From: Candidatus Daviesbacteria bacterium
GTDB taxonomy: Bacteria > Patescibacteriota > Microgenomatia > Daviesbacterales > UBA10151
Direction: 5' to 3'
Assembly: GCA_016176405.1 (NCBI GenBank)
Contig: JACOXG010000010.1
Location: forward strand, 33,078 to 97,077
DNA: 64,000 nt
In this document: piece after piece, positions 46,187 to 64,000 of the stretch
Position numbering within the stretch: the stretch's first letter is position 1
Layout: each line of letters opens with the position of its first letter
Program-made: the position numbers and the translations under genes
Notes under the pieces: generated by a model
Databases searched by the model: none
The model's input: the letters and a program-made list of their open reading frames with translations, nothing else
Told to the model about the DNA's origin: nothing

Positions 46187-46260
46187 TGTGGATTAGTATA
46201 ATGGTAGTACATCAGGTTTTGACCCTGAGAATTTTGGTTCGAATCCAGAATCCACAGCCA
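46187..46260 (+). tRNA. tRNA-Gln (anticodon UUG), CCA encoded
   Basis: Hand-folded cloverleaf: 7-bp acceptor stem TGTGGAT/ATCCACA with U1-A72, discriminator G73, U8, D-loop GG, anticodon loop 'TTTTGAC' (UUG), T-arm TTTGG-TTCGAAT-CCAGA, 3' CCA. 74 nt. Confidence 0.8.
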
Positions 46261-46363
46261 TATGGATTAATGCCATAGAAGTCCAATTAGCATTTTTCAT
46301 TGTTTTTATTTTTGGGTTAGCGCTATTACTATTAGTATTAGGGCTTATAGAAATTCTTAAAAG

Positions 46364-46399
46364 TTGAATATAATATCTAAATAAGGAGAAAAGATTAAG
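46364..46399 (+). promoter_or_regulatory. promoter/RBS cassette variant (TTGAATATAATATCTAAATAAGGAGAAAAG)
   Basis: Shares 'TATAAT..CTAAATA.AAGGAGAAAAG' with the cassette at 44262-44296. Confidence 0.4.
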
Positions 46400-47173
46400 A
46401 TGAGTGGAGTAAAAGGAATGCATAAATATCATAGTCAATACATTTTTGCTGCAAAGCTAAATAAGGCAGTCAGAGCAGGTAGATTTGCTGAGCTAATCAA
46501 GACAAAGACCCTTGAGCAAATAGCAGCATTAGAAAGTCCTCCGATTAGTAGAGAAAGAGTCCGACAGATTTTAGCTTCATTTGGAATTAGCTCTAGTAGG
46601 ATGAAAGGTTCTTCCAAAACTATTTGTAAAATTTGCGGGAAATTAAACAGGTCTTATTCTACTAATATTCATAAATCATGTATGTCAGAATATACAAGAC
46701 AAGAAAGACAAGAGCAAGCTGTATTGCATAATGTTAAATGCACATATTGCAATAATTTGATTGTTAATCGTAACCATGAAACTAGAACTGGACTTAATAA
46801 GCATGCACTAATATATACCCATTTTTTCTGCAATAATAGCTGTCAAGGGAAATGGATGGCTATAATTAATGGAAATGGAAAATTTAGTTTAAAAGTCCCT
46901 TGTTTAAATTGCCATGATCTTTTTAAGTTTGTACAAAATACAGAAGGCTTTAAAGTTTTTTGCTCTATAAGCTGCAATAGTAGTTATAGATTAGGCAAAT
47001 ATGCTTCTGAGACTAGGCACAGTATTTCAGAGCATAGAAAGAAAATTGAGTATACATATTTAGTTCAAAAAGTTAAATCCTTGAAAGAGGATAATAATAA
47101 ATTTGGATTAAAGCCTTATGGGGTAAAACAGCTTCAGAAGTATGCAAATAGACTCTTGAATTGGAGTAATTGA
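46400..47173 (+). CDS. putative transcription regulator: sigma-70 region-4-like HTH plus multiple zinc fingers
   Basis: 'TLEQIAALESPPISRERVRQIL' resembles sigma region 4.2. Several CxxC/CxxH pairs lie downstream. Confidence 0.4.
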   Translation: MSGVKGMHKYHSQYIFAAKLNKAVRAGRFAELIKTKTLEQIAALESPPISRERVRQILASFGISSSRMKGSSKTICKICGKLNRSYSTNIHKSCMSEYTRQERQEQAVLHNVKCTYCNNLIVNRNHETRTGLNKHALIYTHFFCNNSCQGKWMAIINGNGKFSLKVPCLNCHDLFKFVQNTEGFKVFCSISCNSSYRLGKYASETRHSISEHRKKIEYTYLVQKVKSLKEDNNKFGLKPYGVKQLQKYANRLLNWSN

Positions 47174-47389
47174 ATGGGAAATAGAGAGCTAGAGCTTTTG
47201 AGAATGATAGCTTCAACCGATTTGGAAAGAGATGATGATCGGCGCCTTACCATGAAAGACAAAAGATCATTGAGGAGAATGTATCTTAATAAACTAATTA
47301 TGGCTGAGCCTGTTTTGTGGGAAGAAGGGCAACCATATGACAAGCTAATGGGATTAACTGAGAAAGGTAAATTATTTATAGATGGATAA
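47174..47389 (+). CDS. hypothetical protein
   Basis: ORF only. Confidence 0.3.
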   Translation: MGNRELELLRMIASTDLERDDDRRLTMKDKRSLRRMYLNKLIMAEPVLWEEGQPYDKLMGLTEKGKLFIDG

Positions 47390-47606
47390 TCTTGAAGTTT
47401 TAACTTCGTCCGCAGTTTGTTGTAGCAAGGAAATGGATAGATTAACTGATGAAGTAGATATAGGAGTTGGGATTCAGACATTTACATACGGATTTGAATG
47501 TTCTGAGTGTAGCAGGATGCTGCCTGCATGTTTTCATTGTGGAATACCTGAAGATGGCAGGCAGCATTGGACAGGGTGTTTAAGTTTGAAGGAGATAAAT
47601 GATTAA
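47382..47606 (+). CDS. hypothetical Cys-rich protein
   Basis: ORF only. Confidence 0.3.
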   Translation: MDNLEVLTSSAVCCSKEMDRLTDEVDIGVGIQTFTYGFECSECSRMLPACFHCGIPEDGRQHWTGCLSLKEIND

Positions 47607-47716
47607 AGAAGTTTGGGAAACACCCGATAGAAAACATTTTGTCAATAAGGAAGAGGCTGAGCGACATGATACATATTTATCTAATTTAGCTAAGCTAAAT
47701 AAGTTTTATCATTTAA

Positions 47717-47956
47717 ATGACGATGAAGGAGATACATGGTATTTTGTTAAGACAGAGGGATGAAGTAGCAAATATACAAGAAATAGCTGAGAGAGTGTTT
47801 CCTAGACTTAGTTATTTATCGGAGGGGGAGTGCTCTCCTGTGTGGCTTAATTTTCATACAGAATCTGGAGATCGAGATTATACATACATTAGAATTATGC
47901 AAGGGGCTACATTGAGAAAATTTGTGGAAGCATTTGATTATGAAGGAATAAAATGA
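47717..47956 (+). CDS. hypothetical protein
   Basis: ORF only. Confidence 0.3.
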   Translation: MTMKEIHGILLRQRDEVANIQEIAERVFPRLSYLSEGECSPVWLNFHTESGDRDYTYIRIMQGATLRKFVEAFDYEGIK

Positions 47957-48153
47957 CAAAAGATGAGTTTTTGAAGCGTTATCATGTATACCAAGTCTCT
48001 ACTAAAGAAGAAGCTGAAAAAGAAATCGAGCAGATGGAAATTGTTAAAGATTGCATTATTGTTCCAGTTGGATTTGAAGGTTTAGGTTGGTGCTTAATGC
48101 TGAAAACGGCAGCTGATTATTTAGGTGAACTGGGAATAGCTGCAAATAGATAA
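47953..48153 (+). CDS. hypothetical protein
   Basis: ORF only. Confidence 0.3.
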   Translation: MTKDEFLKRYHVYQVSTKEEAEKEIEQMEIVKDCIIVPVGFEGLGWCLMLKTAADYLGELGIAANR

Positions 48154-48154
48154 G

Positions 48155-49726
48155 ATGAAAACAATATTATTTAAAGACAAAGCAAGAAAAGAACTTTTTG
48201 AAGGCATTAAAGTTCTATATGATGCTGTAAAATTCACTTTAGGCCCAAAAGGTAGAAATGCTGTTTTGCAAATGAGAACTGGCTATCCAAATATTTGTAG
48301 TGATGGGGCGACAATACTAAAGGACTTGTCATTACCAGACAGAGCACAAAATGCGGGGATGCAAATAGTAAAAGAAGCATCACAAAAGACCAATGATGCT
48401 GTAGGAGATGGGACTACTACATCAACAGTTTTAGCCTATTGGCTAGTATATGAGGCTTTCAAAGCCTTAGAGGCAGGACATTCTCCGTTAGACATTAGAA
48501 ATGGAATTGAACACGCATTAAAGCTAGTGAAATATGACTTATCTAAAATGTCTGTTCCAGTTAATAGTACACTACAAATCCAGCAAATTGCAGCCTTGGC
48601 TTCTCATGATGAAGAAATGGGGCAAATGGTAGCTGATGTATTAGCGAGAGTTGGATTAAAGGGGACTGTAGTTGTAGAGGAAGCCAAAGTTTTAAAAGAT
48701 ATAGTTGAATATGTAGATGGTATGCAGATTGATAGGGGATATTTAACGGAAAACTTTGCTGCTTTATATAATCAGAATGAAGTAACATTAGACAATCCAT
48801 ATATTTTAATTACAGAGCAGCCTATTTCAAATCCAAATGATATGGCAGCAGTTCTAGATAAAGTAGTGCAGAGTGGGAAACAGAACTTATTAGTAATAGC
48901 CGAAGATGTTATTGGCCATGCTTTGTCAACGCTGTTAGTTAATGTGCAGAAGAGGACAGTAAATAGTCTAGCAATTAGAGCGCCAGCAATTGAATTTCGT
49001 AGGACTGATATGCTAGAAGATATTGCAGTATTTACTGGTGGGGTAATGATTTCTAAGGCTTCTGGTAGAAGTATTAAGAATATTGAATTGTCAGATTTAG
49101 GCAGAGCAGGCAGAGTAATATCAACTAGAGATATAACAACTATAATTGGGGGCAAGGGAGAAAAGCAGAAAATACAAAATAGAATTAGTCAAATAAGGGA
49201 TGCGGACAGTAGAGAGAAGTCGCAATTCGACAAGGATTTGTATAAGGATCGTATTGCACACTTGTCTAGTGGTATAGCAGTAATCAAAGTGGGTGGAATA
49301 TCTGATGTAGATGTCCGAGAACGAAAAAGTAGAGTAGATGATGCTCTTGGCGCAACAAAGGCTGCAATGGAAGAAGGCATAGTTCCTGGCGGTGGAGTAG
49401 CATTGATACAAGCTTGTTCTCTATTAGATAATTTAAGACTAACAAATACACAGGATAGCCTTGGAGTTAAAGTATTCTACAATGCATTACAGCATCCATT
49501 ATGGTTAATTGCAGATAATTCAGGATATAATAACGGGGAATATGTTATAGAAGTAGTAAAGAAAAAGCAGACTGGTTATGATGCTTTTACAGGAGAATTT
49601 TGTGATGCAATAGAGAGAGGGATAGTAGACCCTACAAAGGTTGTTCGAGTAGCATTGGAAAACGCAGTTAGTGTTGCTTTTATATTGTTGACTACAGAAG
49701 CAGTTGTAGCAATCAAGGAGGAATAA
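48155..49726 (+). CDS. GroEL-like chaperonin (Cpn60 family)
   Basis: 'AVKFTLGPKGRNAVL', 'DAVGDGTTTSTVLA' and 'VPGGGVALIQA' match GroEL signature blocks. Confidence 0.8.
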   Translation: MKTILFKDKARKELFEGIKVLYDAVKFTLGPKGRNAVLQMRTGYPNICSDGATILKDLSLPDRAQNAGMQIVKEASQKTNDAVGDGTTTSTVLAYWLVYEAFKALEAGHSPLDIRNGIEHALKLVKYDLSKMSVPVNSTLQIQQIAALASHDEEMGQMVADVLARVGLKGTVVVEEAKVLKDIVEYVDGMQIDRGYLTENFAALYNQNEVTLDNPYILITEQPISNPNDMAAVLDKVVQSGKQNLLVIAEDVIGHALSTLLVNVQKRTVNSLAIRAPAIEFRRTDMLEDIAVFTGGVMISKASGRSIKNIELSDLGRAGRVISTRDITTIIGGKGEKQKIQNRISQIRDADSREKSQFDKDLYKDRIAHLSSGIAVIKVGGISDVDVRERKSRVDDALGATKAAMEEGIVPGGGVALIQACSLLDNLRLTNTQDSLGVKVFYNALQHPLWLIADNSGYNNGEYVIEVVKKKQTGYDAFTGEFCDAIERGIVDPTKVVRVALENAVSVAFILLTTEAVVAIKEE

Positions 49727-49728
49727 CA

Positions 49729-50343
49729 ATGGAATATCCAAAAATAGAAACATTATTTGATAGGGATAAAGACACATTTAAGGTTGATACAAGTAAATGG
49801 AGACTCCCAGAATTTGAGTATCTTCAAAATAATGAATGGCTTGTAACAGAAAAAATAGATGGGACAAATATACGAGTTATGTGGGATGGACAAAAAGTAG
49901 TGTTTGGTGGTAGAACTGACAATGCCAATCTATCAGCTTCTTTGGTAACTAGACTCCAAGAATTGTTCCCAGTAGAAAAATTCCAACTAAATTATCCTAA
50001 TGTATCCATGACTTTATATGGAGAGGGATACGGGGCAGGAATTCAAAAGGGTGGTGGAAATTATCTTCCAGATGGGAAGGATTTTATTTTGTTTGATGTG
50101 CTAATAAAGGACTATTGGCTATTGCAAGATGATATGAATGGCATAGCATCTAAACTGCAAATTAAGACTGTGCCATTTTTAGGGAAATATAATTTGAATG
50201 TTGTTACAAATATGGTGAAGTTAGGATTAGTTTCTACTTTTGGGTCATTTAAAGCTGAAGGTGTGGTAGTGAAGACTCCAGTTGGTCTATATTCTAGGTA
50301 CAATCAAAGACTTGTCGGGAAGTTAAAAGCGACAGATTTATAA
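49729..50343 (+). CDS. ATP-dependent RNA/DNA ligase-family nucleotidyltransferase (minimal Rnl-like)
   Basis: Motif I 'KIDGTN', motif III 'TLYGEGYG', motif IV 'FILFDV', motif V 'EGVVVK'. Confidence 0.55.
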   Translation: MEYPKIETLFDRDKDTFKVDTSKWRLPEFEYLQNNEWLVTEKIDGTNIRVMWDGQKVVFGGRTDNANLSASLVTRLQELFPVEKFQLNYPNVSMTLYGEGYGAGIQKGGGNYLPDGKDFILFDVLIKDYWLLQDDMNGIASKLQIKTVPFLGKYNLNVVTNMVKLGLVSTFGSFKAEGVVVKTPVGLYSRYNQRLVGKLKATDL

Positions 50344-50409
50344 TGACAATAAAGGAGTTGGAATGAACGACTTATTGAAGTATCTCAATAGCCCTAGAAA
50401 TATAAGGGA

Positions 50410-51066
50410 ATGGTTACTGCTTTGGATTCCTATCTGGTTATTATGTATTGGGATTGGTTTATCAATAGCATCAGTTTTGAGACATTTGCTATGACAATTG
50501 AACAAACAGTGTCTGAAATGTGGGGCAAGGATTATCAATTATTTGGATTAAATGACCCGTTCAATCCGAATAATTTTGTAGAAGGATTTCTTTGTACAAG
50601 AGCAGCTAATGATTATGGTTCGTTGATGATTTCAAAGGTCAATGGAACCAAATGCCCCCAACTAATTCAAGGGACTCCAAAACTACATTATCCATTTGAT
50701 AAAAATGGTAATTGGAATTTTCCGTCTGCTAGAAAAATTCTAGTCTATGAAAAGCTTGATGGAACAAATGTTGTTCAGTATGTCTATGGAGATAAAAAAC
50801 AGACATATACTTCGTATAAGACAAGACTAAGGCCGTTTCTTTCTGATGGTCGTTTTGGAGATTTCTTTGGTATGTGGCAAGATATGTTGAAGAAATATCC
50901 AAATATCAATAAGATCGCAGAGACAGGAGTAGCATATAGTTTTGAGCTGTATGGATATTTGAATCGTCATTTGATTGAATATTCTGTAGGTTTGGATTGC
51001 GCTTTATTGTTCATTAGATACCATTCAATATATCCACCAACTAAATTTGACATTTTTTCGCAGTAA
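50410..51066 (+). CDS. second ligase-like nucleotidyltransferase (motif I 'KLDGTN'), possibly truncated or frameshifted at its 3' end
   Basis: 'YEKLDGTNVVQY' and 'SFELYG'. A 35-codon continuation lies in another frame at 51069-51176. Confidence 0.4.
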   Translation: MVTALDSYLVIMYWDWFINSISFETFAMTIEQTVSEMWGKDYQLFGLNDPFNPNNFVEGFLCTRAANDYGSLMISKVNGTKCPQLIQGTPKLHYPFDKNGNWNFPSARKILVYEKLDGTNVVQYVYGDKKQTYTSYKTRLRPFLSDGRFGDFFGMWQDMLKKYPNINKIAETGVAYSFELYGYLNRHLIEYSVGLDCALLFIRYHSIYPPTKFDIFSQ

Positions 51067-51194
51067 AGATTTTCCTGTCCCAGTCTGCAAATTATTAACT
51101 AAGATAGACAAAGACTATGTTTGGAATTATGGTGAACAAAAGAAAGTGATGTCTTCTAAGCTAAAAGAGTAATGGATTTAAGCTAAGGTTAGAG

Positions 51195-51803
51195 ATGATG
51201 GACGAGAAGAATAGACAAGCAATAATAGATTATTTTAGACAAATTCGTCCTAGAAGAACTATAGCTAGAATTCAAGTTCAGGGGACATTTATTGCGTGTG
51301 AATTTGACAATGGAACTCGTTGGGAAGTTCGATCAGCTGATATTCCAATAGATTATTCTAGCAGGGACTTAGAAGTAATTGATTTAGCATATTCAGAAAA
51401 AATTTCTCCTGGTGATTTTGCTGATGCTATGGAGAATCTATCTTGGAAGCAATTAAATGAATTTAAGAGATATTGGGAGAATCAATATCCAACTTTAAAA
51501 ATTGACATTAATTCCAAAATTACAAATGAGACAGAATTGTTTCAGTCTACAGTATGTAAATTTTTAAATATTTCATTAGAAGAATTTATGGCTCAGTATG
51601 GAAAAAAGAAGACCGAAGCTATGATCGAAGGGGTCGGAGCCTGGAAACCACTAAAAAATGATGAAGCATTTGAATCAATGTATACAATGGAGCCTAAGTG
51701 GGAGAAACCTATAGGTTGGACACAAAGGGCTAAGAAAGAGATGACAGAGGAAGAGAATATTGAAATTGTAGATAACCAGAAGCGTAAAATCATTCTAGAT
51801 TAG
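51195..51803 (+). CDS. hypothetical protein with shared C-terminal tag (..VDNQKRKIILD)
   Basis: C-terminal peptide shared with 60227..60781 and four others. Confidence 0.4.
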   Translation: MMDEKNRQAIIDYFRQIRPRRTIARIQVQGTFIACEFDNGTRWEVRSADIPIDYSSRDLEVIDLAYSEKISPGDFADAMENLSWKQLNEFKRYWENQYPTLKIDINSKITNETELFQSTVCKFLNISLEEFMAQYGKKKTEAMIEGVGAWKPLKNDEAFESMYTMEPKWEKPIGWTQRAKKEMTEEENIEIVDNQKRKIILD

Positions 51804-51836
51804 AGCGCTCTCAAAAAAGAATATAATATATGTAGA

Positions 51837-52355
51837 ATGGCAATTCTCAAAATAGTAATTCTCTCGGCAACACTGGCATTCTTAGCCCAGTTTGTAGCTG
51901 TAGGGTCTCCTAATTTTGTAGAAGTGAATGAGTCGGCATTGGTTTTACTACGAGATCGCTATCCAACTATGTTTGAACTAGTTATGTATAATGTTATAGA
52001 GAACATAGAATGGACATCCGATGCTGACCAGATACCAGGCTGGAAAGTCGGTGCAGATTATATCATGTTGCCAGATGATGGCAATGCAGATATTGTTATG
52101 GCAGGAAGGTTGGCACATGAAGCTATGCATATCTTGCTCTGGAAAAACTGTATTCAGCCTGGTGGTGCATGGGGCGAGGAGTTTGCCATTTATCAGGAGA
52201 CAGTCACGCTAAGAAAATTAAATCGTTTTGGTGAATATAATGGAGTTGAAGATTATATTCAGTCACTACAGAAAGCCATTGGCACACACGGTAAAGGGAC
52301 AGAGATAGTATCTCTACCCGCATATTGTGAAGGTGGAATTGCATTAGTTAAATAA
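51837..52355 (+). CDS. secreted HExxH zinc metallopeptidase-like protein
   Basis: N-terminal signal peptide 'MAILKIVILSATLAFLAQFVAVG' and 'LAHEAMHILLW' (HExxH). Confidence 0.45.
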   Translation: MAILKIVILSATLAFLAQFVAVGSPNFVEVNESALVLLRDRYPTMFELVMYNVIENIEWTSDADQIPGWKVGADYIMLPDDGNADIVMAGRLAHEAMHILLWKNCIQPGGAWGEEFAIYQETVTLRKLNRFGEYNGVEDYIQSLQKAIGTHGKGTEIVSLPAYCEGGIALVK

Positions 52356-52393
52356 GTTTTAAGGAAGATGCTATTAGAACTATCTAATTGTTT

Positions 52394-52424
52394 GCCTCTA
52401 GTAAAAATTTAAAATACTGGAGGC
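52394..52424 (+). terminator. hairpin (candidate terminator) immediately upstream of the promoter cassette
   Basis: GCCTCTAGTA / TACTGGAGGC is a 10-bp stem with one G-U, extendable by TTT/AAA. T-rich sequence follows after the cassette begins. Confidence 0.4.
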
Positions 52425-52454
52425 AAAAACATTTTCTTTCAATATAATATAATT
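52425..52454 (+). promoter_or_regulatory. conserved phage promoter cassette
   Basis: AAAAACATTTTCTTTCAATATAATATAATT. Confidence 0.55.
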
Positions 52455-52462
52455 AATCTATC

Positions 52463-52648
52463 TTGAAAGGGGAGAAAAGAAAAGTGCAGTTAACTAAAGT
52501 AGTGTATCCATACAACCCATATCAGTATGAATGTCAGTATTGCTCCCGAAGATTAGGTCATTCTCAGAAAGTTCATGACACAGTAGTATCAAAGAACAAC
52601 TATTATTCTCTTGTAATTGATAGGGTAATGAGAAGGAAGTGGGCATAA
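52463..52648 (+). CDS. small hypothetical protein (start more likely the GTG at 52484)
   Basis: Downstream of the promoter cassette. 'CQYCSRRLGH'. Confidence 0.35.
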   Translation: MKGEKRKVQLTKVVYPYNPYQYECQYCSRRLGHSQKVHDTVVSKNNYYSLVIDRVMRRKWA

Positions 52649-52926
52649 TAAGGAGAATGTATCCGATGCTTCAGTATGAGGTAATAGCAGAGTTTAGGTC
52701 AAAGACTAAGCCTGGGAAATGTTACATAGTTAAGAAAAGATTAGACACCGGAATGCTAACTTGCAATTGCCCAGCTTGGATTTTCAATAAATATGAGGAT
52801 AGAACTTGCTATCATACATTAAAGTTAATGGCAAGTGGGGCATTGCAGTCACAGCAGCAAAATCAAGTTATTGATAGAATTGAGGCTGTCAATTCAGGAA
52901 GGAGAGTATTGATACTAGATGAGTAA
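52639..52926 (+). CDS. SWIM-type zinc-finger protein
   Basis: 'CNCPAWIFNKYEDRTCYH' fits CxCx(n)CxH. Confidence 0.35.
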   Translation: MGIIRRMYPMLQYEVIAEFRSKTKPGKCYIVKKRLDTGMLTCNCPAWIFNKYEDRTCYHTLKLMASGALQSQQQNQVIDRIEAVNSGRRVLILDE

Positions 52927-53119
52927 AAAGACGAGTTTTGAGGTTATAATGAAACGAAGCCATTACACAAGTTATTTTATTGAGGTCGAAACAGAAGAGG
53001 ATGCTGAAGTCTTAGTAAAAGATGGTAACGGGACGTTTGGGGCTGATTGGGAAAGCCTGGAGGAAGAAGTGTATGCGGTGCTCTGTCCCCCAAAATCTTT
53101 TTCTTCAAATAAATTATAA
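52919..53119 (+). CDS. hypothetical protein
   Basis: ORF only. Confidence 0.3.
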   Translation: MSKKTSFEVIMKRSHYTSYFIEVETEEDAEVLVKDGNGTFGADWESLEEEVYAVLCPPKSFSSNKL

Positions 53120-53289
53120 TTATATTATCTTAAATAGGGGGGTTTTATGAGAAAAGGCAAATGTTATATTTGTGGAAAAATATCTAAGTTATATCTTGAT
53201 TATGGCGGACCAGGAAAAGTAAAAGGCTATTGTCTAAAATGCTCAAATAAAAATAGAAATCTAGCCTAAAATTAGCTTTAAAAATAATA

Positions 53290-56713: not shown

Positions 56714-56896
56714 ATGAAATACAAAATTATTATCTATCCTGATGGGGGAGTAGAAGCTCAAGATCCTTCTGGCAGAGCAGTGTCTAAGAGTATGCCATGG
56801 CTAATAAAAGCTCTAGGAGAAATAGGAGAAGAGAAGCATCTATCAGGAAGTCATACTCATACAGAGAAGGAATCAATAGAAATTCAGAATGGCTAA
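56714..56896 (+). CDS. hypothetical protein
   Basis: ORF only. Confidence 0.25.
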   Translation: MKYKIIIYPDGGVEAQDPSGRAVSKSMPWLIKALGEIGEEKHLSGSHTHTEKESIEIQNG

Positions 56897-56919
56897 ATAT
56901 AGTCTAAAATAGATTTGTC

Positions 56920-57243
56920 ATGAGAAAAGGAATTCAAATGAAAGAAGTCGTGGAGGATGAGACCATGGAAGAGGTTGGGCTGCTTGTAACAACAGCATAC
57001 AAAGGGGTATTTTTTGGGTATGGCATCTTTTCGGATGCTGCCCAGATTACATTGAAGCGTGCCAGAATGTGTATCTATTGGCCAACAGGAGAAAAGGGAG
57101 TAATGGGATTAGCACTCGTAGGGCCGCTCCCAGGGGCTAAAATTGGGCCTGCTGTGCCATCCTTGATTTTGCGGGATGTAACTGCTGTCGTTATATGTAC
57201 GTCTAGTGCTATTGAGAAGTGGGAGAAGCCACCGTTATGGTAA
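56920..57243 (+). CDS. hypothetical protein
   Basis: ORF only. Confidence 0.3.
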   Translation: MRKGIQMKEVVEDETMEEVGLLVTTAYKGVFFGYGIFSDAAQITLKRARMCIYWPTGEKGVMGLALVGPLPGAKIGPAVPSLILRDVTAVVICTSSAIEKWEKPPLW

Positions 57244-57914
57244 CATTAGCTAATGTTATTAATGGCCCTAGCTATGGCTATGGCTATGGCTATGGCGATG
57301 GCTCTGGCTATGGCTATGGCTATGGCGATGGTTCTGGTTATGGCTCTGGCTATGGCTCTGGCTATGGCTATGGCTATGGCTCTGGTTATGGCTATGGCTA
57401 TGGCGATGGCTCTGGCTATGGCTATGGCTATGGCGATGGTTCTGGCTATGGCTCTGGCTCTGGCTCTGGCGATGGCTATGGCTCTGGCTCTAGCTATGGC
57501 TATGGCTATGGCTATGGCTATGGCTCTAGCTATGGCTCTGGCTCTGGCTCTGGCGATGGCTATGGCTCTGGCTCTGGCTATGGCTCTGGCTATGGCTCTG
57601 GCTCTGGCTATGGCTATGGCTCTGGCTATGGCTATGGCTATGGCTATGGCTATGGCGATGGTTGCTTTGATTACATTCGGACACTGCAGGAGACAGGACT
57701 GCTTACAACTAATTTCATTTTTGCCTTGCCAACAGAGATGCAGAAAAAGTTGAAGCTATTAAAATTAGTTACCCCAAATTCATTGCAAGAAAAAAAGAGA
57801 TCAGTTAAAACTGAATTAGATAAGTATAATTTGAATATTTCTACATCTTTAAAAGAAGACTATTCAACCAATATAATATTCAATAGCGGGAAAAGAAAGA
57901 TAGACTTATCTTAG
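57219..57914 (+). CDS. Gly/Tyr-rich tandem-repeat protein (GYGYGYGDGS)n with a globular C-terminal region and C-terminal tag (..NIIFNSGKRKIDLS)
   Basis: About 130 aa made of G-Y-G/S-D repeats. The last 18 aa are nearly identical to the end of 57936..58718. Confidence 0.5.
   Translation: MGEATVMVTLANVINGPSYGYGYGYGDGSGYGYGYGDGSGYGSGYGSGYGYGYGSGYGYGYGDGSGYGYGYGDGSGYGSGSGSGDGYGSGSSYGYGYGYGYGSSYGSGSGSGDGYGSGSGYGSGYGSGSGYGYGSGYGYGYGYGYGDGCFDYIRTLQETGLLTTNFIFALPTEMQKKLKLLKLVTPNSLQEKKRSVKTELDKYNLNISTSLKEDYSTNIIFNSGKRKIDLS
57268..57662 (+). repeat. imperfect hexanucleotide tandem repeat (GGCTATGGCTATGGCGATGGCTCTGGC units)
   Basis: Repeated GGCTMT/GGCGAT units. This is the coding repeat inside the Gly/Tyr-rich protein gene. 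Confidence 0.8.
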
Positions 57915-57935
57915 AATATCTATCAGGAGAGGGCA

Positions 57936-58718
57936 ATGAGATCTATTTGGGACAAAACAGTTTGTATCGGTTCTGGCACTACTCCAGCTAAGATCTATAA
58001 TTTTTTTGACTATGGGGGAGATTTTAAAGAAGGAAAGTGTTTTGACTGTGGAAAAATTTTTAGACTAAATTATATCAGTGGCTTAGTGAGACAGCATTTT
58101 ATAAATACGGGGCCAATTGAATATCGCGATAATTGGGGGCCAGAATTTGCAAAAGAATACTTGAAGAGCATTCGTTTCAAAAAAGAAAGACAAGTGATAA
58201 AAAGTGCAGTTAAAGCACAGAGAGCTGCTGAAGAGAGGGGAAGAAAGCAAAAACAAGAAAATGATAATATTGTAGATAATATTAAATCTCAGATGTCATT
58301 AAAAGAATTTATAGTTCAATATGGCAATAAGCCTGTTCCTAGTTTATTTATAGACAAATGGGTCCCCAAGATTGGAGACAGAGTAAAAGTAATTGGGTCA
58401 TTTAAGGATTGCGGGGGGAGGGTGGCTAGTCATGATTGCCATTTACGTAAAATGATAGGTAGAGTAGGAGAAATAACTTCTCTAAACTTAATATACGAAA
58501 ATCATAATATTGGTGTTAAATTTGGTTATGGAGATGACATATCTGTCGGACATTATTCTGGCTTAGAGATAAAGCCAATTTTTAGCTCATCCCAAAAAGA
58601 AAAGGGGTCTATTGCATCAAGGCTGAAGAATTTTGATTTGAATGTATTTTTAAAAGAAGAAGATTATTCAGGCAATATAATATTTAACAGCGGCAAGAGA
58701 AAAATAGATCTGTCTTAA
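57936..58718 (+). CDS. hypothetical protein with C-terminal tag (..NIIFNSGKRKIDLS)
   Basis: Shared C-terminal peptide. Confidence 0.4.
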   Translation: MRSIWDKTVCIGSGTTPAKIYNFFDYGGDFKEGKCFDCGKIFRLNYISGLVRQHFINTGPIEYRDNWGPEFAKEYLKSIRFKKERQVIKSAVKAQRAAEERGRKQKQENDNIVDNIKSQMSLKEFIVQYGNKPVPSLFIDKWVPKIGDRVKVIGSFKDCGGRVASHDCHLRKMIGRVGEITSLNLIYENHNIGVKFGYGDDISVGHYSGLEIKPIFSSSQKEKGSIASRLKNFDLNVFLKEEDYSGNIIFNSGKRKIDLS

Positions 58719-58732
58719 AAAAAGGAAAAGTT

Positions 58733-59194
58733 ATGCATTATTATACTGTTAGTCTAGTTGGAGGGGAAGAGTATAGTCCAGTAATCATAGCAATTCTGAA
58801 TAAGATCCCTTATTTTGATAGTGTGGTAGAGGCAATGGCACGAGGACTCTTTGCAAAATGGTTAAGCAATCCTAATAGAACTATACAAGGTTTTCCTGGT
58901 CATGATCATGACATAAATATTAAAATAGCAGAACAACTTGCTAAAGAATATGGTGGGGATGTCATTGAATTTGAAGAAGAATATGAATGGGAGTATTTCA
59001 CGGCACATAGTTTTAAATATCCAGCATTAGCAAAAGCTCAAGATGAACCATTTAAAGAAAACTTGAAGCCAGTCTTTCCTCATTACTTTGGAAAAGATTT
59101 AGAGACTAAATTATTCAATGCATTAGTAGAAGCATACAAAGTAGAATTAGAAAAGGAGAAAGAAAAGAAGACACATGAGAAAACAGGTTTATAG
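58733..59194 (+). CDS. hypothetical protein
   Basis: ORF only. Confidence 0.3.
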   Translation: MHYYTVSLVGGEEYSPVIIAILNKIPYFDSVVEAMARGLFAKWLSNPNRTIQGFPGHDHDINIKIAEQLAKEYGGDVIEFEEEYEWEYFTAHSFKYPALAKAQDEPFKENLKPVFPHYFGKDLETKLFNALVEAYKVELEKEKEKKTHEKTGL

Positions 59195-59492
59195 TTGGCA
59201 TGATGTGTCAGATGAAGAGATAGAAAAAATTTATGGTTCCTTATATACTTTATTTGAAGAAATAGTCCCAGTTGACTGTGATTATGATAATGTCATAGAT
59301 ATGAAATTGATAGATAGACGTAAATTTGAACCGATGCATTTTTTCAAGCAGCCACATTTAGCCAAAGATTATTCTAATATGGAGGACTGTCTGAACATTG
59401 CTAATATAAATATTCATCAAGCAGTAGAAAAATGGCAGACATTGTATAGAATTAAGAAAGATTTAGAAAAGGAGAAAAGTGAATCTAGATAG
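59175..59492 (+). CDS. hypothetical protein
   Basis: ORF only. Confidence 0.3.
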   Translation: MRKQVYSWHDVSDEEIEKIYGSLYTLFEEIVPVDCDYDNVIDMKLIDRRKFEPMHFFKQPHLAKDYSNMEDCLNIANINIHQAVEKWQTLYRIKKDLEKEKSESR

Positions 59493-59841
59493 ACGAGAGA
59501 AGCATGTTCTAAATGAGCTAAGGGAGACATATAATATTCCAGTTGCTCAGTTGCTAGGAAAACTAAACTCAAAAGAAGCCTCAGTAATTTATGCAGAGCT
59601 AAAAGGGGACGATTCAATATCCTGTCATGTGCTAAGTTTAGATGGTTTTATTTGTGGAGGAGTTTCTTCTTGTTCCCCTAATGATAAATATAGCTATGCA
59701 ATAGGAAGAATGATAGCATTTGCAGACGCTGCGGTGAATTATTCAAACAATGTAGTAGGAAGGAGTAAATATCATCTTACAAGTAAGCAATTGGAAAGCA
59801 TAGCAAGAGGAAATACTTTATCTAGCAATATAATAGAATAA
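59479..59841 (+). CDS. hypothetical protein
   Basis: ORF only. Confidence 0.3.
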   Translation: MNLDRREKHVLNELRETYNIPVAQLLGKLNSKEASVIYAELKGDDSISCHVLSLDGFICGGVSSCSPNDKYSYAIGRMIAFADAAVNYSNNVVGRSKYHLTSKQLESIARGNTLSSNIIE

Positions 59842-59849
59842 GAGTACAT

Positions 59850-60070
59850 GCTTGGTGGCAGAAAGAACCGATTGCGTCAATCCACATCGTAGTAATGGTC
59901 TGGTAGTGTGGAAGTGTCAGACACTCCCAGGTAGGGGCGGGCAATGCAGCTTTGTAGCGGCAAGGATGTGTCTGCTGAGACCTGGGCCAAGCATTATGCT
60001 GCTTCCAAGATCTACTTCATTCTGGCTGTCAGTAGGTAAAGGATTGATAGACTTCTTCGGTGGAAAAATG
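59850..60070 (+). ncRNA. candidate structured non-coding RNA (GC-rich island)
   Basis: About 50% GC in a roughly 35% GC genome. The track ORF here (59852..60133) has an implausible, low-complexity translation. Perfect complementary 7-mers CAGACAC/GTGTCTG and CCCAGGT/ACCTGGG sit in a crossing (pseudoknot-like) order, plus a hairpin TCCACAT..GTGTGGA. Confidence 0.3.
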
Positions 60071-60226
60071 GACTATAATGATTCCGATGATATAGAGATC
60101 AATTATTCAAAGCCTATTGGAACGTGGGGATGAATTTCAAAATAATTTGTTCAGTATAAAGCTATTAACAAAAGATGATTTATTTGCAATGGAAGATTTT
60201 GCAGCTTATTTAATGAGATAACTCAA

Positions 60227-60781
60227 ATGGAACGATTTAAAATAGGGGATTTAGTTCAGGTCTATGCTTTATGCAAAATTGTAGTACATGAACCGCCTTT
60301 CTTAGGAAAAACTGGTAGAATATCCCAAATAAGCAGATTTGAGGGACACAACATTAGTGTTATATTTGATGACATTAAATATCCTTGTGTGTATGATCAA
60401 AATGAGATACAATTAGTTGATGCTAATGAATGGATACCAAAAGTTGGAAATCTTGTTAAAGTTGTAAATGTTTGTAAAGCTATATCAATTATGGCTCATC
60501 GATGCCACGACAAAGATATTTTGCAACAGGTTGGTATAATTGAAAATATAAATGATATAGAAATACTTAATCATCGTATTCTTATTAGGTTTAAGAACAA
60601 TAAACTTCTATACGGCCATTATTCTAAAGCAGAATTAGAACTTGTAAACACATGGTTAGACCAGAACAAACGAAAGCCATGGATAGAAGAAATACAGAAT
60701 ACATTGGTGGACATGAAAAAGAAACAAGAAGACCAATTCTTAATTATTGACAATCAGAAAAGACGAATAGACTTAGACTAA
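60227..60781 (+). CDS. hypothetical protein with C-terminal tag (..IIDNQKRRIDLD)
   Basis: Shared C-terminal peptide. Confidence 0.4.
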   Translation: MERFKIGDLVQVYALCKIVVHEPPFLGKTGRISQISRFEGHNISVIFDDIKYPCVYDQNEIQLVDANEWIPKVGNLVKVVNVCKAISIMAHRCHDKDILQQVGIIENINDIEILNHRILIRFKNNKLLYGHYSKAELELVNTWLDQNKRKPWIEEIQNTLVDMKKKQEDQFLIIDNQKRRIDLD

Positions 60782-60786
60782 ATAAA

Positions 60787-61083
60787 ATGCAGACATTAAT
60801 TTTAAAAGTCCTAGTTGGATCTAAAGCTCATGGTCTTGCTAACAAAGACAGTGATACAGATTATAGGGGAGTTTTTGTAGAATCAACATCTGAAATTCTG
60901 GCAATGAAGAAATTAACTATTAAAAAAGTTGAGCCAAATCTTTATGAAATATCAAATTTTGCTTCATATAAAACAGTGACTTTATTTGCCACAGCAGAAG
61001 AATTAGAAGAACTTCATCAAGCATTAGAAAATATAAGTTGTTTGGATGAGAATTGTTCTTGTTATATTAAAGCTATGTCTTGA
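60787..61083 (+). CDS. hypothetical protein
   Basis: ORF only. Confidence 0.3.
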   Translation: MQTLILKVLVGSKAHGLANKDSDTDYRGVFVESTSEILAMKKLTIKKVEPNLYEISNFASYKTVTLFATAEELEELHQALENISCLDENCSCYIKAMS

Positions 61084-61116
61084 TACAAAGATATTTGGGG
61101 AGATTGGTATAGAGCA

Positions 61117-61317
61117 ATGAAAGATTCTGTAGGAAAATGCATTAAGTGTAATAAGCATGGAGATCTTGGAAATGGTCTTTGTGTAAGATGCTGGGACAGG
61201 TCTTTAGGGGATGCTTTGGGGCATTACTATTCCTATGAAAAGTGGGACAAGAAAATGAAGGTTAAATTTCTGTCTGTGCAAGAAGTATCAGATCCAAAGG
61301 ACAAAGGGATTTTATAA
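61117..61317 (+). CDS. zinc-ribbon protein
   Basis: 'CIKCNKHGDLGNGLCVRC'. Confidence 0.3.
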   Translation: MKDSVGKCIKCNKHGDLGNGLCVRCWDRSLGDALGHYYSYEKWDKKMKVKFLSVQEVSDPKDKGIL

Positions 61318-61319
61318 AA

Positions 61320-61523
61320 ATGTTTATATGCCAAGCAAGGTCTAAAAATAAATTCTGTGACAAACCAGCTAATTGGAGAGCAGAATGGTCTGATATAGAA
61401 TTGTTTGTCTGCGATGAAGATAGACTATATGTCAGAGAAGTGTATAAAGGAGATAGTAAATTAGACAGAACGGGAATATTTTGGACATCAGATTTAGGGA
61501 CTACCGAATATGAAGATTACTAA
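61320..61523 (+). CDS. hypothetical protein
   Basis: ORF only. Confidence 0.3.
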   Translation: MFICQARSKNKFCDKPANWRAEWSDIELFVCDEDRLYVREVYKGDSKLDRTGIFWTSDLGTTEYEDY

Positions 61524-61544
61524 AAGGCTTAGTGGATAATTTTT

Positions 61545-61727
61545 ATGAGCAATTTTATTGCCCTTTATTTTGCAATTGGACTAATTGTATTTGCTCTTGT
61601 TTATACAGGAATTGAAATTAACAATGAAACGCATCGACTCGGAGATTTATTGTCTGTTATTTTTTGGCCAATTATTTTAGTTGTAGCAATAGGAATAAGG
61701 GTACATAATGAAAAGAATTCTAGATGA
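61545..61727 (+). CDS. small two-TM membrane protein (holin-like size class)
   Basis: Hydrophobic stretches 'FIALYFAIGLIVFALVYTG' and 'IFWPIILVVAIGI'. Confidence 0.35.
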   Translation: MSNFIALYFAIGLIVFALVYTGIEINNETHRLGDLLSVIFWPIILVVAIGIRVHNEKNSR

Positions 61728-62157
61728 AATAAAATACTTCATTCAGCGTGGAAGAAGAGGCTGGTCAGATAGAGATATTTGGGATTTTGAGAGCTATCTT
61801 CACAAGATTCTAGCTGGAGGATTAACATACTTAGCCAAATCGGAAAATGGGCATCCATGCAGATTAATTATCTTGGAGGGGCAAGAAGAATGGACTCCCG
61901 ATAATTGTTCAAATTGCCACTGTGCTGAAAATTGGGACAAAGAATTAAGAGATAATGCAGAGAAATTCAGAAAATTGTGTGCTGAAAATGAAGGCGAATT
62001 CTTTAAAGAAGCTGATGAAATATATTTTAATGGTATAACAGATAATAATCAAGATGAGTGGGGAAGATTAGTTAAAAAAGGCTTTGAAGAAAAAAATAAA
62101 ATATGCAAAGAAGCATGGGAATGGCTAAAAGAGAATCATTGGTTATTGTGGGACTAG
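61708..62157 (+). CDS. hypothetical protein
   Basis: ORF only. Confidence 0.3.
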   Translation: MKRILDEIKYFIQRGRRGWSDRDIWDFESYLHKILAGGLTYLAKSENGHPCRLIILEGQEEWTPDNCSNCHCAENWDKELRDNAEKFRKLCAENEGEFFKEADEIYFNGITDNNQDEWGRLVKKGFEEKNKICKEAWEWLKENHWLLWD

Positions 62158-62317
62158 AAAGGATGAGGTATAATGTCACATCCAATAACAGACCATAAGA
62201 CCATAGAAGAGGTAATAACTCACAGTGTTAGTTGAGAAGATATGGATGGGTGGTTATTAGTTGGGCCAATTGAAGATAACAAGATAGAAGTGATTGTCCA
62301 ATGGAAAAATGTAGGCG

Positions 62318-62557
62318 ATGAATATAAATCTAGAAATAATCAAAGATAACTTTAGAGTAGAAGTCTATTGGTCTAATGATTATGCATCTGCGCATTTTAA
62401 TGAAAATGAGGCAAAGGGGCTTGCTAGGTATATAGAGAGCCTAAAAGACATAAAAGCTGTAGTTGTTTGGGATACACATTATAAATGCCCAAATTGCAAA
62501 ATGAGGGCGGTTAAGAAAGAAGACTTAGTAAATTGCTGCGAGGAGAATGTAGAATGA
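62318..62557 (+). CDS. hypothetical Cys-rich protein
   Basis: ORF only. Confidence 0.3.
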   Translation: MNINLEIIKDNFRVEVYWSNDYASAHFNENEAKGLARYIESLKDIKAVVVWDTHYKCPNCKMRAVKKEDLVNCCEENVE

Positions 62558-62877
62558 AAGAACTATTTAAAATTTTTGATGAATATAAGGGCCATGATGT
62601 AGAACTCAGTGTGATGTTAACAATGCTTTTCTTACTAATTTTAGGCTCAGTAAGTGTTGTTATGGCGATTCTTATAGGCACCCCATTCTTATTCTTTGTG
62701 GTTGGGGCTGTCTGGTTAGTCTGGTTCACAATATACCAGTTTGTAAAAAAGTATCAGATGAAAAACATAGACCCCAGCTGTCCTTCTCAAACGGATTTTA
62801 CAGGCGATTCTAGATGTCCTCCTCAAGTAGATTACACATTGGGGGAAGAAGCTGCGATCAAGAAAAGGGAGAGATAA
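62533..62877 (+). CDS. membrane protein (two TM helices)
   Basis: 'LSVMLTMLFLLILGSVSVVMAILIG' and 'FLFFVVGAVWLVWFTIY'. Confidence 0.35.
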   Translation: MLRGECRMKELFKIFDEYKGHDVELSVMLTMLFLLILGSVSVVMAILIGTPFLFFVVGAVWLVWFTIYQFVKKYQMKNIDPSCPSQTDFTGDSRCPPQVDYTLGEEAAIKKRER

Positions 62878-62879
62878 GA

Positions 62880-64000
62880 ATGTCTAACTTAAGAATTTGG
62901 GGAAGAGATATAGACCAAAATACAATGCTACAAGTAGAGATGACTGCAAGATTGTCTATCTTGAAAAATCATCCTGTAGCATTAATGCCAGATGCACATC
63001 TAGGAACTGGAGCAACAGTAGGAAGTGTTATAGCTACTGAAAATGCAATTGTCCCAGCTGCAGTCGGCGTGGATCTGGGCTGTGGGATGGTTGCTGTAGA
63101 GACAGATCTAAAGGCTAGTGATTTGCCAGATGATTTGCAACCATTAGTACATCAATTTAGTAGGTCAATTCCTGCGGGAGTGGGAAGAAGAAGAAATAGA
63201 GGGCAATCTATTGGACTAGAGGATAAATATGCTGTAAGAGAAGTGGCTGATTGGATGTTAAAAAATCCTTGCGATTTAGGCGGTTTAAAAACTACTGCCT
63301 TTTCTCAGCTTGGGACATTAGGGTCAGGAAATCATTTTGTAGAAGTCTGTCTAGACGAGAATGATATTGTATGGACAGTACTGCATTCTGGCTCCAGGGG
63401 AGTTGGAAATCAGCTTGCTAATAAACATATCAAACTAGCAAAGAAGCAAGAACTAGCATTAGAAGATAAGGATTTAGCATACTTTCTTGAAGGGACAAAT
63501 GAATTCAAGAATTATATTTCTGATATGCTTTGGGCGCAAAAATATGCATTGAAGAATAGAATGATTATGATGTCAATAGCCCTAATGAATTTGTTCCAGT
63601 TTGTAGGAAAGGGGAAAGTGATGATGGAGATAAATTGCCATCATAACTTTGCTCAGCAAGAATTGCATGACGGGAAATTATTGTGGATAACACGCAAAGG
63701 CGCAATAAAAGCAGATAAGGGAGATTTTGGGGTAATCCCTGGTAGTATGGGAACAAAGTCATACATTGTGCAAGGGCTAGGGAATCCTGATTCATACAAT
63801 TCAGCAAGTCATGGCGCTGGGAGAAGAATGAGTAGAGGACAAGCAAAGAGAGAATTAACACAAGAGTCACTAAATGTAGCCATGGAAGGAAAGGCCTGGA
63901 ATAATGATGCTAAAGGTTTATTAGATGAGCATCCAGCAGCATATAAAGACATAGACCAAGTAATGGAAGATCAGAAGGACTTGGTCGAGATCTTACATGT
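62880..64000 (+). CDS. rtcB: RtcB RNA 3'-phosphate ligase (3' end beyond the window)
   Basis: Hand translation from the ATG at 62880 stays open to the window end. RtcB signatures present: 'ALMPDAHLGTGA', 'GSGNHFVE', 'NCHHNF', 'SHGAGR'. Not in the ORF track because no stop falls inside the window. Confidence 0.85.
   Translation, partial: MSNLRIWGRDIDQNTMLQVEMTARLSILKNHPVALMPDAHLGTGATVGSVIATENAIVPAAVGVDLGCGMVAVETDLKASDLPDDLQPLVHQFSRSIPAGVGRRRNRGQSIGLEDKYAVREVADWMLKNPCDLGGLKTTAFSQLGTLGSGNHFVEVCLDENDIVWTVLHSGSRGVGNQLANKHIKLAKKQELALEDKDLAYFLEGTNEFKNYISDMLWAQKYALKNRMIMMSIALMNLFQFVGKGKVMMEINCHHNFAQQELHDGKLLWITRKGAIKADKGDFGVIPGSMGTKSYIVQGLGNPDSYNSASHGAGRRMSRGQAKRELTQESLNVAMEGKAWNNDAKGLLDEHPAAYKDIDQVMEDQKDLVEILH

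Follow-up and report, generated by a model that had tools for sequence, protein, structure and literature searches.

A scattered set of RNA-ligase, tRNA and truncated translation genes in a phage contig binned with Candidatus Daviesbacteria

Phage T4 repairs PrrC-cleaved tRNA-Lys with polynucleotide kinase-phosphatase (Pnkp) and the RNA ligase Rnl1. In jumbo phages, combinations of RtcB, Rnl1, Rnl2, RlaP and tRNA genes have been described and interpreted as counter-defence (Iyer et al. 2021, PMC7824862); according to the same study, RlaP, RNA ligase and tRNAs have parallel distributions across large phages, and several ligases can occur in one genome. Phage RNA-repair sets are also treated by Burroughs and Aravind (2016; cited in PMC7824862). 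Here we describe a stretch of 64,000 nucleotides (positions 33,078 to 97,077 of contig JACOXG010000010.1, assembly GCA_016176405.1, deposited as 'Candidatus Daviesbacteria bacterium'; hereafter the window, numbered from its first letter) that Pfam, PHROG and NCBIfam scans show to have the gene content of a tailed phage, and that carries genes for the ligase RtcB, for ATP-dependent ligase-family proteins, for tRNA-Gln(UUG) and for a truncated glutamyl-tRNA synthetase (GluRS).

With moderate confidence, we favor the reading that this phage carries a loose set of RNA-damage-response and translation genes, part of which looks functional (RtcB, a minimal ligase and the tRNAs) and part of which has decayed. 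A preliminary description, made from the letters of the DNA, had proposed that the phage invests in tRNA integrity; this idea is reasonable and matches the published pattern of RtcB, Rnl, RlaP and tRNA genes, but the roles proposed for a second ligase, for an enzyme of the GluQRS type and for a phosphoesterase are not supported. The genes on which the argument turns are the following.

62880-64000, plus strand: RtcB 3'-phosphate/5'-hydroxyl RNA ligase, ending about 34 nt past the window (PF01139, phrog_1075)
49729-50343, plus strand: stand-alone ATP-dependent RNA-ligase-type nucleotidyltransferase, 204 aa (PF09414, phrog_548)
50410-51066, plus strand: remnant of an Rnl1/Trl1-like RNA ligase, N-terminal half, 218 aa (alignment to a family of about 375 aa)
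51077-51172, plus strand: frameshifted continuation of the ligase remnant, ending in KIDKDYVWNYGEQKKVMSSKLKE and a stop codon (three-frame translation, tblastn)
41663-42604, plus strand: catalytic core of GluRS, 313 aa, with Rossmann, CP and stem-contact domains (TIGR00464, tRNA-synt_1c)
46187-46260, plus strand: tRNA-Gln(UUG), called by ARAGORN and by Rfam RF00005 (63.7 bits, cut-off 29), with a cloverleaf fold

Like the sets of large and jumbo phages (PMC7824862), the window contains the same protein families, both ligase chemistries, an RlaP-type gene and tRNAs of its own, and the set is a further example of a gene combination already catalogued in large phages. It differs from them in that the phage genome, at about 110 kb, lies below the jumbo threshold, in that the genes are scattered, and in that one ligase and probably RlaP are truncated. 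Moreover, the ATP-dependent ligases of jumbo phages are reported together with kinase/phosphatase healing enzymes, whereas none was found here. The sequence examined for the gene set comprised the window and 18 kb of flanks, that is, about 82 kb of the approximately 110 kb, with about 28 kb lying outside.

RtcB and the ATP-dependent ligases

The placement of RtcB at 62880 to the window end in the preliminary description is borne out both by the PF01139 profile and by a complete set of catalytic motifs. The 373 of 384 codons that fall inside the window score 358.5 bits against PF01139 (cut-off 27) and 421 bits against phrog_1075, and the complete gene on an identical contig encodes 384 aa and matches the profile from position 1 to 426 with 367.6 bits. 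The PDAH, DLGCG, GSGNHF, HSGSRG, CHHN and SHGAGR motifs align to the Thermus thermophilus and Pyrococcus horikoshii RtcB structures; in this family, such motifs supply the metal-binding Cys, His and Asp side chains as well as the histidine to which GMP becomes attached. Judged by these motifs, RtcB is intact and looks functional. RtcB enzymes join 2',3'-cyclic phosphate or 3'-phosphate ends directly to 5'-hydroxyl ends with GTP and Mn2+ through a His-GMP intermediate, and ends of this kind are the products of metal-independent anticodon nucleases and toxins. The phage enzyme would thus reseal tRNAs and other RNAs cut by metal-independent host ribonucleases, without an end-healing step.

Two minimal ATP-dependent ligases had also been proposed, of which the first, the open reading frame (ORF) at 49729-50343, proved to be a ligase-family protein with motifs I, III, IV and V. 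Its product scores 66.7 bits against the PF09414 RNA_ligase model (cut-off 27) and matches phrog_548, annotated as 'RNA ligase'. It has more than 7900 homologs, almost all of which, among the matches listed, are 201-216 aa long; since the homologs share the same size of about 205 aa, the ORF is not truncated. The ORF has K42 (motif I), E99 (motif III), E177-G178 (motif IV) and K198/K200 (motif V), none of which varies across 40 family members, and the protein, like the whole family, ends four residues past motif V, with no appended N- or C-terminal domain. In a fold search with an AlphaFold2 model (predicted local distance difference test [pLDDT] score, 91.5), the top PDB match was the adenylyltransferase domain of T4 Rnl2 (1s68; template modeling [TM] score, 0.69), with Naegleria Rnl5 and then archaeal Rnl3 ranking behind it.

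The modeled fold of this minimal ligase is therefore best described as Rnl2-like, but the protein is not an Rnl2 equivalog, as it scores 23 bits against TIGR02307 (RNA_lig_RNL2), for which the cut-off is 197. Fold and motifs I, III, IV and V are common to this protein, to T4 Rnl2 (residues 1-249 in 1s68) and to the Rnl5 enzymes of Naegleria and Deinococcus, but neither it nor its more than 7900 relatives have the C-terminal domain of Rnl2 or the N-terminal module of Rnl5. Work from the Shuman laboratory reportedly found that the isolated N-domain of Rnl2 self-adenylylates and can seal nicks that are pre-adenylylated, while its overall sealing of nicks is defective, and a ligase domain of about 205 aa with thousands of relatives raises the question of how sealing proceeds without an accessory domain. 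Ligases of this type seal 3'-OH/5'-phosphate breaks through Lys-AMP, the lysine here being Lys42; the phage protein would act on such breaks through Lys42-AMP, most likely at nicks in a duplex context. Without Pnkp, it could not act on nuclease products that carry 2',3'-cyclic phosphate or 3'-phosphate and 5'-OH ends.

In all four of the other contigs that carry a minimal ligase of about 205 aa, its neighbors include HNH, a topoisomerase zinc ribbon, DnaB, RepO, ThyX, methyltransferases, ERF and PD-(D/E)xK proteins, and no kinase-phosphatase was found near it in these four contigs. Such replication or recombination surroundings point to nick sealing in nucleic-acid metabolism no less than to tRNA repair. 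One contig from the Joint Genome Institute (72,308 bp; loci L011 and L012) has the same gene series, including a 208-aa ligase, at two places, which suggests a concatemeric or terminally redundant assembly. In the window, a GroEL-type chaperonin gene (48155-49726, 229 bits) stops 2 nt before the minimal ligase begins.

The second ORF, at 50410-51066, did not stand as a minimal ligase: alignment and frame analysis identify it as the truncated, frameshifted half of a ligase of about 375 aa, whose homologous start probably lies at 50491. It has no match in Pfam, PHROG or NCBIfam, and its 83 homologs, most of them 365-382 aa long, carry no Pfam assignment either. In full-length members, motifs I, III (SFELYG), IV (EGxVWY) and V (FKCKP) are followed by a helical C-terminal domain. 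The ORF retains motif I as EKLDGTN (KxDGxN) and motif III as SFELYG, and K115, D117, G118 and N120 are conserved without exception in the family alignment. The lysine-adenylate motif, to which the preliminary description had tied the ligase assignment, thus has its lysine in both ligase-like ORFs. However, the ORF stops before alignment columns 281-301, where EGxVWY (motif IV) and FKCKP (motif V) lie, and so has neither of these motifs nor the helical C-terminal domain.

What remains of the missing part is partly legible. Full-length members used as tblastn queries gave an in-frame match to residues approximately 1-190 only, and residues 198-228 of one relative (P0134) matched 51077-51169 in another frame, albeit weakly (E=0.002). 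The frameshifted stretch ending in KIDKDYVWNYGEQKKVMSSKLKE corresponds to family residues approximately 198-228, just before motif IV, and an unrelated gene starts about 20 nt farther on; the next ORF (51195-51803) shows no similarity to the missing half. Among relatives on viral contigs, all 27 lie in full-length ORFs. Because the ORF is cut before motif IV and is followed by a legible frameshifted continuation, we interpret it as a frameshifted and 3'-deleted pseudogene. The remnant is predicted to be inactive, and only one of the two ATP-dependent ligases, rather than both as had been supposed, can be active.

The family from which the remnant derives (P0122-P0203) was placed through its full-length relative P0134. 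The model of P0134 (pLDDT 93) had as its top PDB match T4 Rnl1 (2c5u), over the whole length, with E=1.6e-9 and a modest TM score of 0.48; Rnl3 and then the ligase domain of fungal Trl1 came next. A profile search of the family against PDB sequences returned nothing meaningful; among 13 members there was one weak match to PF09511, short of membership, and six had weak matches to PF09414. As modeled on P0134, the family is a very divergent ligase with an Rnl1/Trl1-like fold. It shares with the T4 repair system the combination of an adenylyltransferase and a helical C-terminal domain, and T4 Rnl1 is its best structural match, but identity to T4 Rnl1 is only about 13% and the members do not belong to PF09511. 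The window differs further from T4 in that its copy of this ligase is an apparently dead remnant and in that Pnkp was not found in the approximately 82 kb examined. The family occurs in many large viral contigs of up to 545 kb (loci L013-L039). tRNA genes lie within 10 kb of the family gene at 11 of 28 loci, including arrays of 10 and 14 (raw count, uncorrected for background). This family without a Pfam model may represent an undescribed clade of tRNA ligases.

Phage tRNAs and the glutamyl-tRNA synthetase core

The tRNA-Gln with U1-A72 and G73 that had been read from the sequence is confirmed by ARAGORN and by the Rfam score of 63.7 bits. It is 74 nt long, has its CCA encoded, pairs G2-C71 and U3-A70 below the first pair, and bears UUUUGAC as its anticodon loop. 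The elements previously named as bacterial GlnRS identity elements are present, but U1-A72 does not single out GlnRS: the tRNA-Gln-specific GluRS2 and the bacterial amidotransferase depend critically on the same pair (PMC2777447). The Rfam scan found no structured RNAs other than tRNA. Two further tRNA genes, tRNA-Met(CAU) and tRNA-Ile(UAU), lie about 6 kb upstream of the window start within the replication module (L048:3486-3559 and 3947-4024).

The codon usage of the phage bears on these genes. Among glutamine codons, CAA occurs 379 times versus 193 for CAG, and tRNA-Gln(UUG) reads the preferred one; ATA makes up 40% of isoleucine codons. Per 1000 codons there are 22.4 CAA and 29.3 ATA, and A or T fills 73% of third positions. 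tRNA-Gln(UUG), tRNA-Ile(UAU) and tRNA-Met(CAU) would together supply decoding of heavily used A-ending codons. As the phage tRNAs read heavily used codons, codon supply is a sufficient ordinary explanation for them. They could also stand in for depleted or cleaved host tRNAs, and replacement of cleaved host tRNAs is possible as an additional role.

The truncated GluRS paralog at 41663-42604 is real, but its assignment to the GluQRS type fails, and with it the claim of a tRNA-modifying aminoacyl-tRNA synthetase paralog loses its support. The ORF scores 297.6 bits against tRNA-synt_1c and 402.8 bits against TIGR00464 (gltX_bact; cut-off 289.95; profile positions 2-315 of 470). All five GluQRS models (TIGR03838 and NF004312-15) stayed below their cut-offs, the best being TIGR03838 with 205.9 bits versus 276.7. 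In comparisons with the sequences of solved structures, GluRS enzymes reached 236-281 bits and Escherichia coli YadB (1nzj) 117 bits. With TIGR00464 passed and the GluQRS models failed, GluQRS identity was rejected. GluQRS/YadB resembles the window protein in being a catalytic core of about 300 aa without an anticodon-binding domain, but it belongs to a different clade, so that any tRNA modification by the GluRS core would be convergent.

The ORF aligns to residues 1-318 of the 468 residues of T. thermophilus GluRS, a stretch that reaches up to the junction before the anticodon-binding domains. Its nearest relatives are 54% identical and about 485 aa long, and among the matches listed all 119 of 460-520 aa carry the anticodon-binding domain PF19269. 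This domain is absent from the ORF, and no remnant of it was found downstream. A scan of viral contigs with the core alone found no relatives; a profile-based rescan found five GluRS genes, all of them full-length and reaching 133-187 aa past the core. As the viral and cellular relatives examined are all full-length, the truncation is a one-off. A promoter-like 30-mer, described below, starts exactly at the stop codon of the core, which places the end of the ORF at a module boundary.

The state of the core itself is mixed. It retains the HIGH motif as HVGN and the KMSKS motif as KLSKR, along with R5, A7, S9, Y187, R205 and W209, the glutamate-site residues of T. thermophilus GluRS; E41 is replaced by D. 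Of the 87 positions invariant in the nearest clade, 76 are retained, and of those conserved at 95% or more, the core retains 78%, versus 99% in leave-one-out controls. By its sequence, the core appears divergent but not obviously dead.

We know of no natural phage-encoded core of the GluRS clade that has been characterized. Huge phages encode GluRS and other synthetases (PMC7162821). Engineered C-truncated E. coli GluRS (Dubois et al. 2009; Dasgupta et al. 2009) and Helicobacter pylori GluRS2 still select tRNA through the acceptor stem and D-arm, and show that activity and specificity are possible for an enzyme reduced to the core; the former are laboratory constructs and the latter is a full-length enzyme, whereas the window core is natural. 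The catalytic-domain truncation of E. coli GluRS is reported to keep a preference for tRNA-Glu (as cited in PMC2777447; see also Dubois 2009 and Dasgupta 2009), while GluRS2 recognizes tRNA-Gln solely through the acceptor stem (PMC2777447). Given these two precedents, a core-only enzyme could act on either tRNA.

It is conceivable that the core and tRNA-Gln(UUG) form a functional pair, in which acceptor-stem recognition would yield Glu-tRNA-Gln for amidation by host GatCAB and give the phage its own entry to the indirect Gln-tRNA pathway. The U1-A72 pair of the tRNA would suit such recognition, since GluRS2 reads tRNA-Gln solely via the acceptor stem and U1:A72 is also an element of the amidotransferase (PMC2777447); the signature motifs and the glutamate-site residues named above are kept, and the two genes lie 3.6 kb apart on the same strand. 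We nevertheless consider the pair very unlikely. The E. coli catalytic-domain truncation, as cited in PMC2777447, still prefers tRNA-Glu; the window truncation has no counterpart among the viral and cellular relatives examined; and conserved positions are eroded relative to the controls. Plain decay is the simpler account, since two neighboring RNA-related genes are demonstrably or probably decayed and no truncated relative is known from our searches, which makes a recent remnant the simpler reading of the core as well. Most likely, on this comparison, the core would retain at best a weak, acceptor-stem-driven glutamylation or is a recent remnant. That it is a functional natural core of the GluRS clade, which lost the domain independently of GluQRS and charges the phage tRNA-Gln or modifies tRNA, seems to us quite unlikely. 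If true, the core would charge the U1-A72 tRNA-Gln(UUG) by its acceptor stem and Glu-tRNA-Gln would then pass to the host amidotransferase, or, alternatively, a convergent GluQRS-like modification would shield an anticodon from host nucleases.

Healing enzymes, arrangement and recurrence of the set

Three further ORFs bear on the question of RNA repair.

60787-61083, plus strand: fragment of an RlaP-like Pol-beta nucleotidyltransferase, 98 aa (PF10127, phrog_388)
43901-44260, plus strand: YAcAr protein of the SLOG family, 119 aa (PF10686 on an identical contig)
33632-34978, plus strand: calcineurin-type phosphoesterase-like ORF (phrog_284, 'exonuclease')

RlaP is an RNA-ligase-associated Pol-beta nucleotidyltransferase that extends the damaged 3' ends of RNAs by one or two nucleotides (PMC12776372). 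The RlaP-like ORF scores 32.3 bits against PF10127 (cut-off 23) but covers only positions 20-65 of the 249-position profile, the N-terminal GS...DxD segment, and it matches phrog_388 at positions 36-101 of 351. A tblastn search with a 323-aa RlaP found no trace of the rest, and the ORF is probably truncated. The window YAcAr is clearly related, with 154 bits, to a YAcAr of another phage (locus L007), where RlaP, RtcB and ligases are its neighbors; the window gene is linked to RNA repair by co-occurrence only. With the RlaP-like ORF and YAcAr, two further genes of the published repertoire are present here.

A calcineurin-like phosphoesterase that might trim RNA ends had been proposed at 33632-34978. 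Its motifs can be read by eye in the translation (DTH, GDMISGD, GNHGR, HGD and GHFH), but there is no Pfam Metallophos match and no match to a PDB sequence. A weak DUF7148 hit is the sole Pfam match above the E=0.01 threshold, and the only family matches are to phage 'exonuclease' families (phrog_284, 158 bits). The ORF lies 15 kb from the nearest ligase, and nothing links it to RNA.

No Pnkp-type kinase/phosphatase was found in the window and 18 kb of flanks (Pfam on 50 window and downstream ORFs, and precomputed Pfam annotation upstream, with many small ORFs unannotated). Likewise, no 2H, HD or HAD healing enzyme, archease, RtcA or Hen1 was found in the scanned ORFs or in the precomputed flank annotation. 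As no Pnkp was found, the classical Rnl-plus-Pnk pathway is incomplete in the approximately 82 kb examined.

These results leave little room for a complete dual-chemistry tRNA repair kit, made up of RtcB, two active Rnl ligases, an end-trimming phosphoesterase and a GluQRS-type enzyme. Such a kit would be in keeping with the motif-I lysine of both ligase-like ORFs, with a synthetase paralog that has the size and domain content of GluQRS (catalytic core only), and with the phosphoesterase motifs. It is contradicted, however, by the frameshift in 50410-51066, an ORF that has also lost its C-terminal domain along with motifs IV and V, and again by the failure of all five GluQRS models where the GluRS model passes, YadB reaching 117 bits versus 236-281 for GluRS. 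In addition, the only families that the phosphoesterase matches are phage 'exonucleases', the gene is 12-29 kb distant, and no polynucleotide kinase was found. We regard the complete kit as highly improbable.

The RNA-related genes span 21 kb, or 29 kb if the phosphoesterase is counted, and GroEL, an AAA ATPase and many small ORFs lie among them. They do not constitute a compact module but are loosely arranged and non-operonic. An unrelated 142-kb phage contig, found in several metagenomes (L007-L009), carries adjacent genes for RtcB (389 aa), a PF09414 ligase (348 aa) and a full-length ligase of the ~375-aa family (376 aa), with RlaP (323 aa) and YAcAr about 5 kb downstream of the ligase row (L007:5614-9131 and 14563-16238). 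This cluster is a compact version of the scattered set of the window. Among the 28 loci of the ~375-aa ligase family, RtcB lies within 10 kb only in the L007 lineage, a second PF09414 ligase is near four (one of them weak) and RlaP is near two.

The scatter could also mean that the genes have no common function and are independent accessory genes, with tRNAs matching AT-rich codons, the 204-aa ligase serving nicks of replication or recombination, RtcB acting in other RNA processing and the truncated genes being debris. The codon counts, which favor CAA and ATA, agree with this, as do the ThyX, ERF, PD-(D/E)xK, HNH, DnaB/RepO and methyltransferase neighbors of the minimal ligase in four of four other contigs, the distribution of the genes over 21 kb with promoter-like repeats between them, and the rarity of RtcB near the ~375-aa ligase family. 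Yet RtcB, a PF09414 ligase, a ~375-aa-family ligase, RlaP and YAcAr are clustered in 11 kb of another phage, RlaP, RNA ligase and tRNAs are distributed in parallel among large phages (PMC7824862), and genes of the ~375-aa family often stand beside tRNA arrays. We therefore hold the lack of any common function to be possible but unlikely.

Several observations weigh against our favored reading of a loose, partly decayed RNA-damage-response and translation set. The genes are 3-12 kb apart, with unrelated genes and promoter-like repeats between them, and RtcB is found within 10 kb of the ~375-aa family in only one of about 28 independent loci, an occasional association. The replication and recombination neighborhoods of the minimal ligase would fit the sealing of nicks in DNA/RNA hybrids no less than RNA repair. 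Healing enzymes of the Pnkp, 2H, HD and HAD types went undetected in about 82 of about 110 kb, in which many small ORFs lack annotation. Finally, 50410-51066 and the GluRS N-terminal fragment keep conserved residues and may have residual or new functions, rather than being simply decayed.

The phage genome and significance of the set

The window genes surrounding the set are those of a phage. Sizeable ORFs all lie on the plus strand, and the GC content is about 0.35. Modules were assigned as follows.

Window, replication and nucleotide metabolism: end of the PolA gene, ThyA, ThyX, Dam methylase, RecA, Cas4-like nuclease, NT5C, RNR (ribonucleotide reductase) and SNF2 helicase
Window, structural genes: portal, prohead protease with an intein, and ClpP-like protease
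Just beyond the window end: SU10-like major capsid protein
10 kb upstream of the window: DnaB, primase, a UDG-like (uracil-DNA glycosylase-like) gene and the remainder of PolA

Contigs that match the window in several runs of one sequencing project are 100% identical to it. One contig of 93.5 kb extends from window position 57632 past the window end and round again to about 41.2 kb; since the contig coordinates wrap, the genome is circular or permuted, with a size of about 110 kb. At NCBI, the window proteins (MBI2020149-MBI2020200) sit on a 109,932-bp contig of the 'Candidatus Daviesbacteria bacterium' metagenome-assembled genome. By its gene content, the contig is viral and not from Daviesbacteria, namely, a tailed phage from groundwater metagenomes with a circular or circularly permuted genome of about 110 kb. 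Its placement in this bin reflects either a binning artefact or a phage of a bacterium of the candidate phyla radiation (CPR). A search of 185,579 reference genomes turned up no capsid relatives, and the pointer to a CPR host therefore comes from binning only. Among deposited phages, megablast found no close relative of window positions 46000-64000 and tblastn found no relatives of 50410-51066; GluRS matches there were bacterial-type or megaphage genes with less than 43% identity.

Two motifs recur in the window. A conserved, intergenic, phage-promoter-like 30-mer, AAAAACATTTTCTTTCAATATAATATAAT, occurs at 42603-42632, 52425-52454 and 54850-54879, with weaker copies at 53092 and 59811, and a second motif, ending in AGGAGAAAAG, is found at 44254 and 46355. 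A scan for sigma-70 promoters and terminators was uninformative, with fewer promoter-like matches than in shuffled sequence. Four ORFs that are otherwise dissimilar or weakly similar (51195-51803, 57219-57914, 57936-58718 and 60227-60781) have a common C-terminal tail, reading DNQKRKIILD, DNQKRRIDLD or, twice, NSGKRKIDLS directly before the stop codon. Two of the tail-bearing ORFs flank the decayed ligase and the RlaP fragment. The shared tail could be a targeting or degradation signal or a trace left by a mobile cassette; that such a cassette brought about the truncations was rejected, as the flanking ORFs share only this C-terminal tail of about 18 residues, which is too little. One tail-bearing ORF, 57219-57914, encodes a low-complexity repeat protein with a weak TrAA12-like match and contains a long array of 12- and 18-nt tandem repeats (57185-57730).

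Elsewhere in the window, a 682-aa protein (22344-24392) combines DUF192 with an ADP-ribosyltransferase exoenzyme domain and is directly followed by a NUDIX hydrolase (24394-25353); the pair may be a host-takeover or NAD-conflict module. There is an intein in the prohead protease (38514-40403), Hint/intein signatures are present in a 435-aa ORF (35588-36895), and a NUMOD3/Vsr-type homing endonuclease (21347-22375) adjoins the portal gene, making for a genome rich in selfish elements. A full-length aldehyde dehydrogenase is encoded at 11415-12902 (452 bits).

Our analysis suggests corrections to the deposited annotation: the 'GluRS' is a truncated core, one 'hypothetical protein' is an RNA ligase, and another is what remains of a ligase. 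A natural GluRS core that lacks the anticodon-binding domain raises the question of its activity and tRNA target. The remnant of the ~375-aa ligase, caught in decay with its continuation still legible, suggests fast turnover of such counter-defence genes. If our reading is correct, this would be one more phage with RNA-repair and tRNA genes directed against host defences that target translation, in this case a mid-sized groundwater phage deposited in the genome bin of a CPR bacterium.

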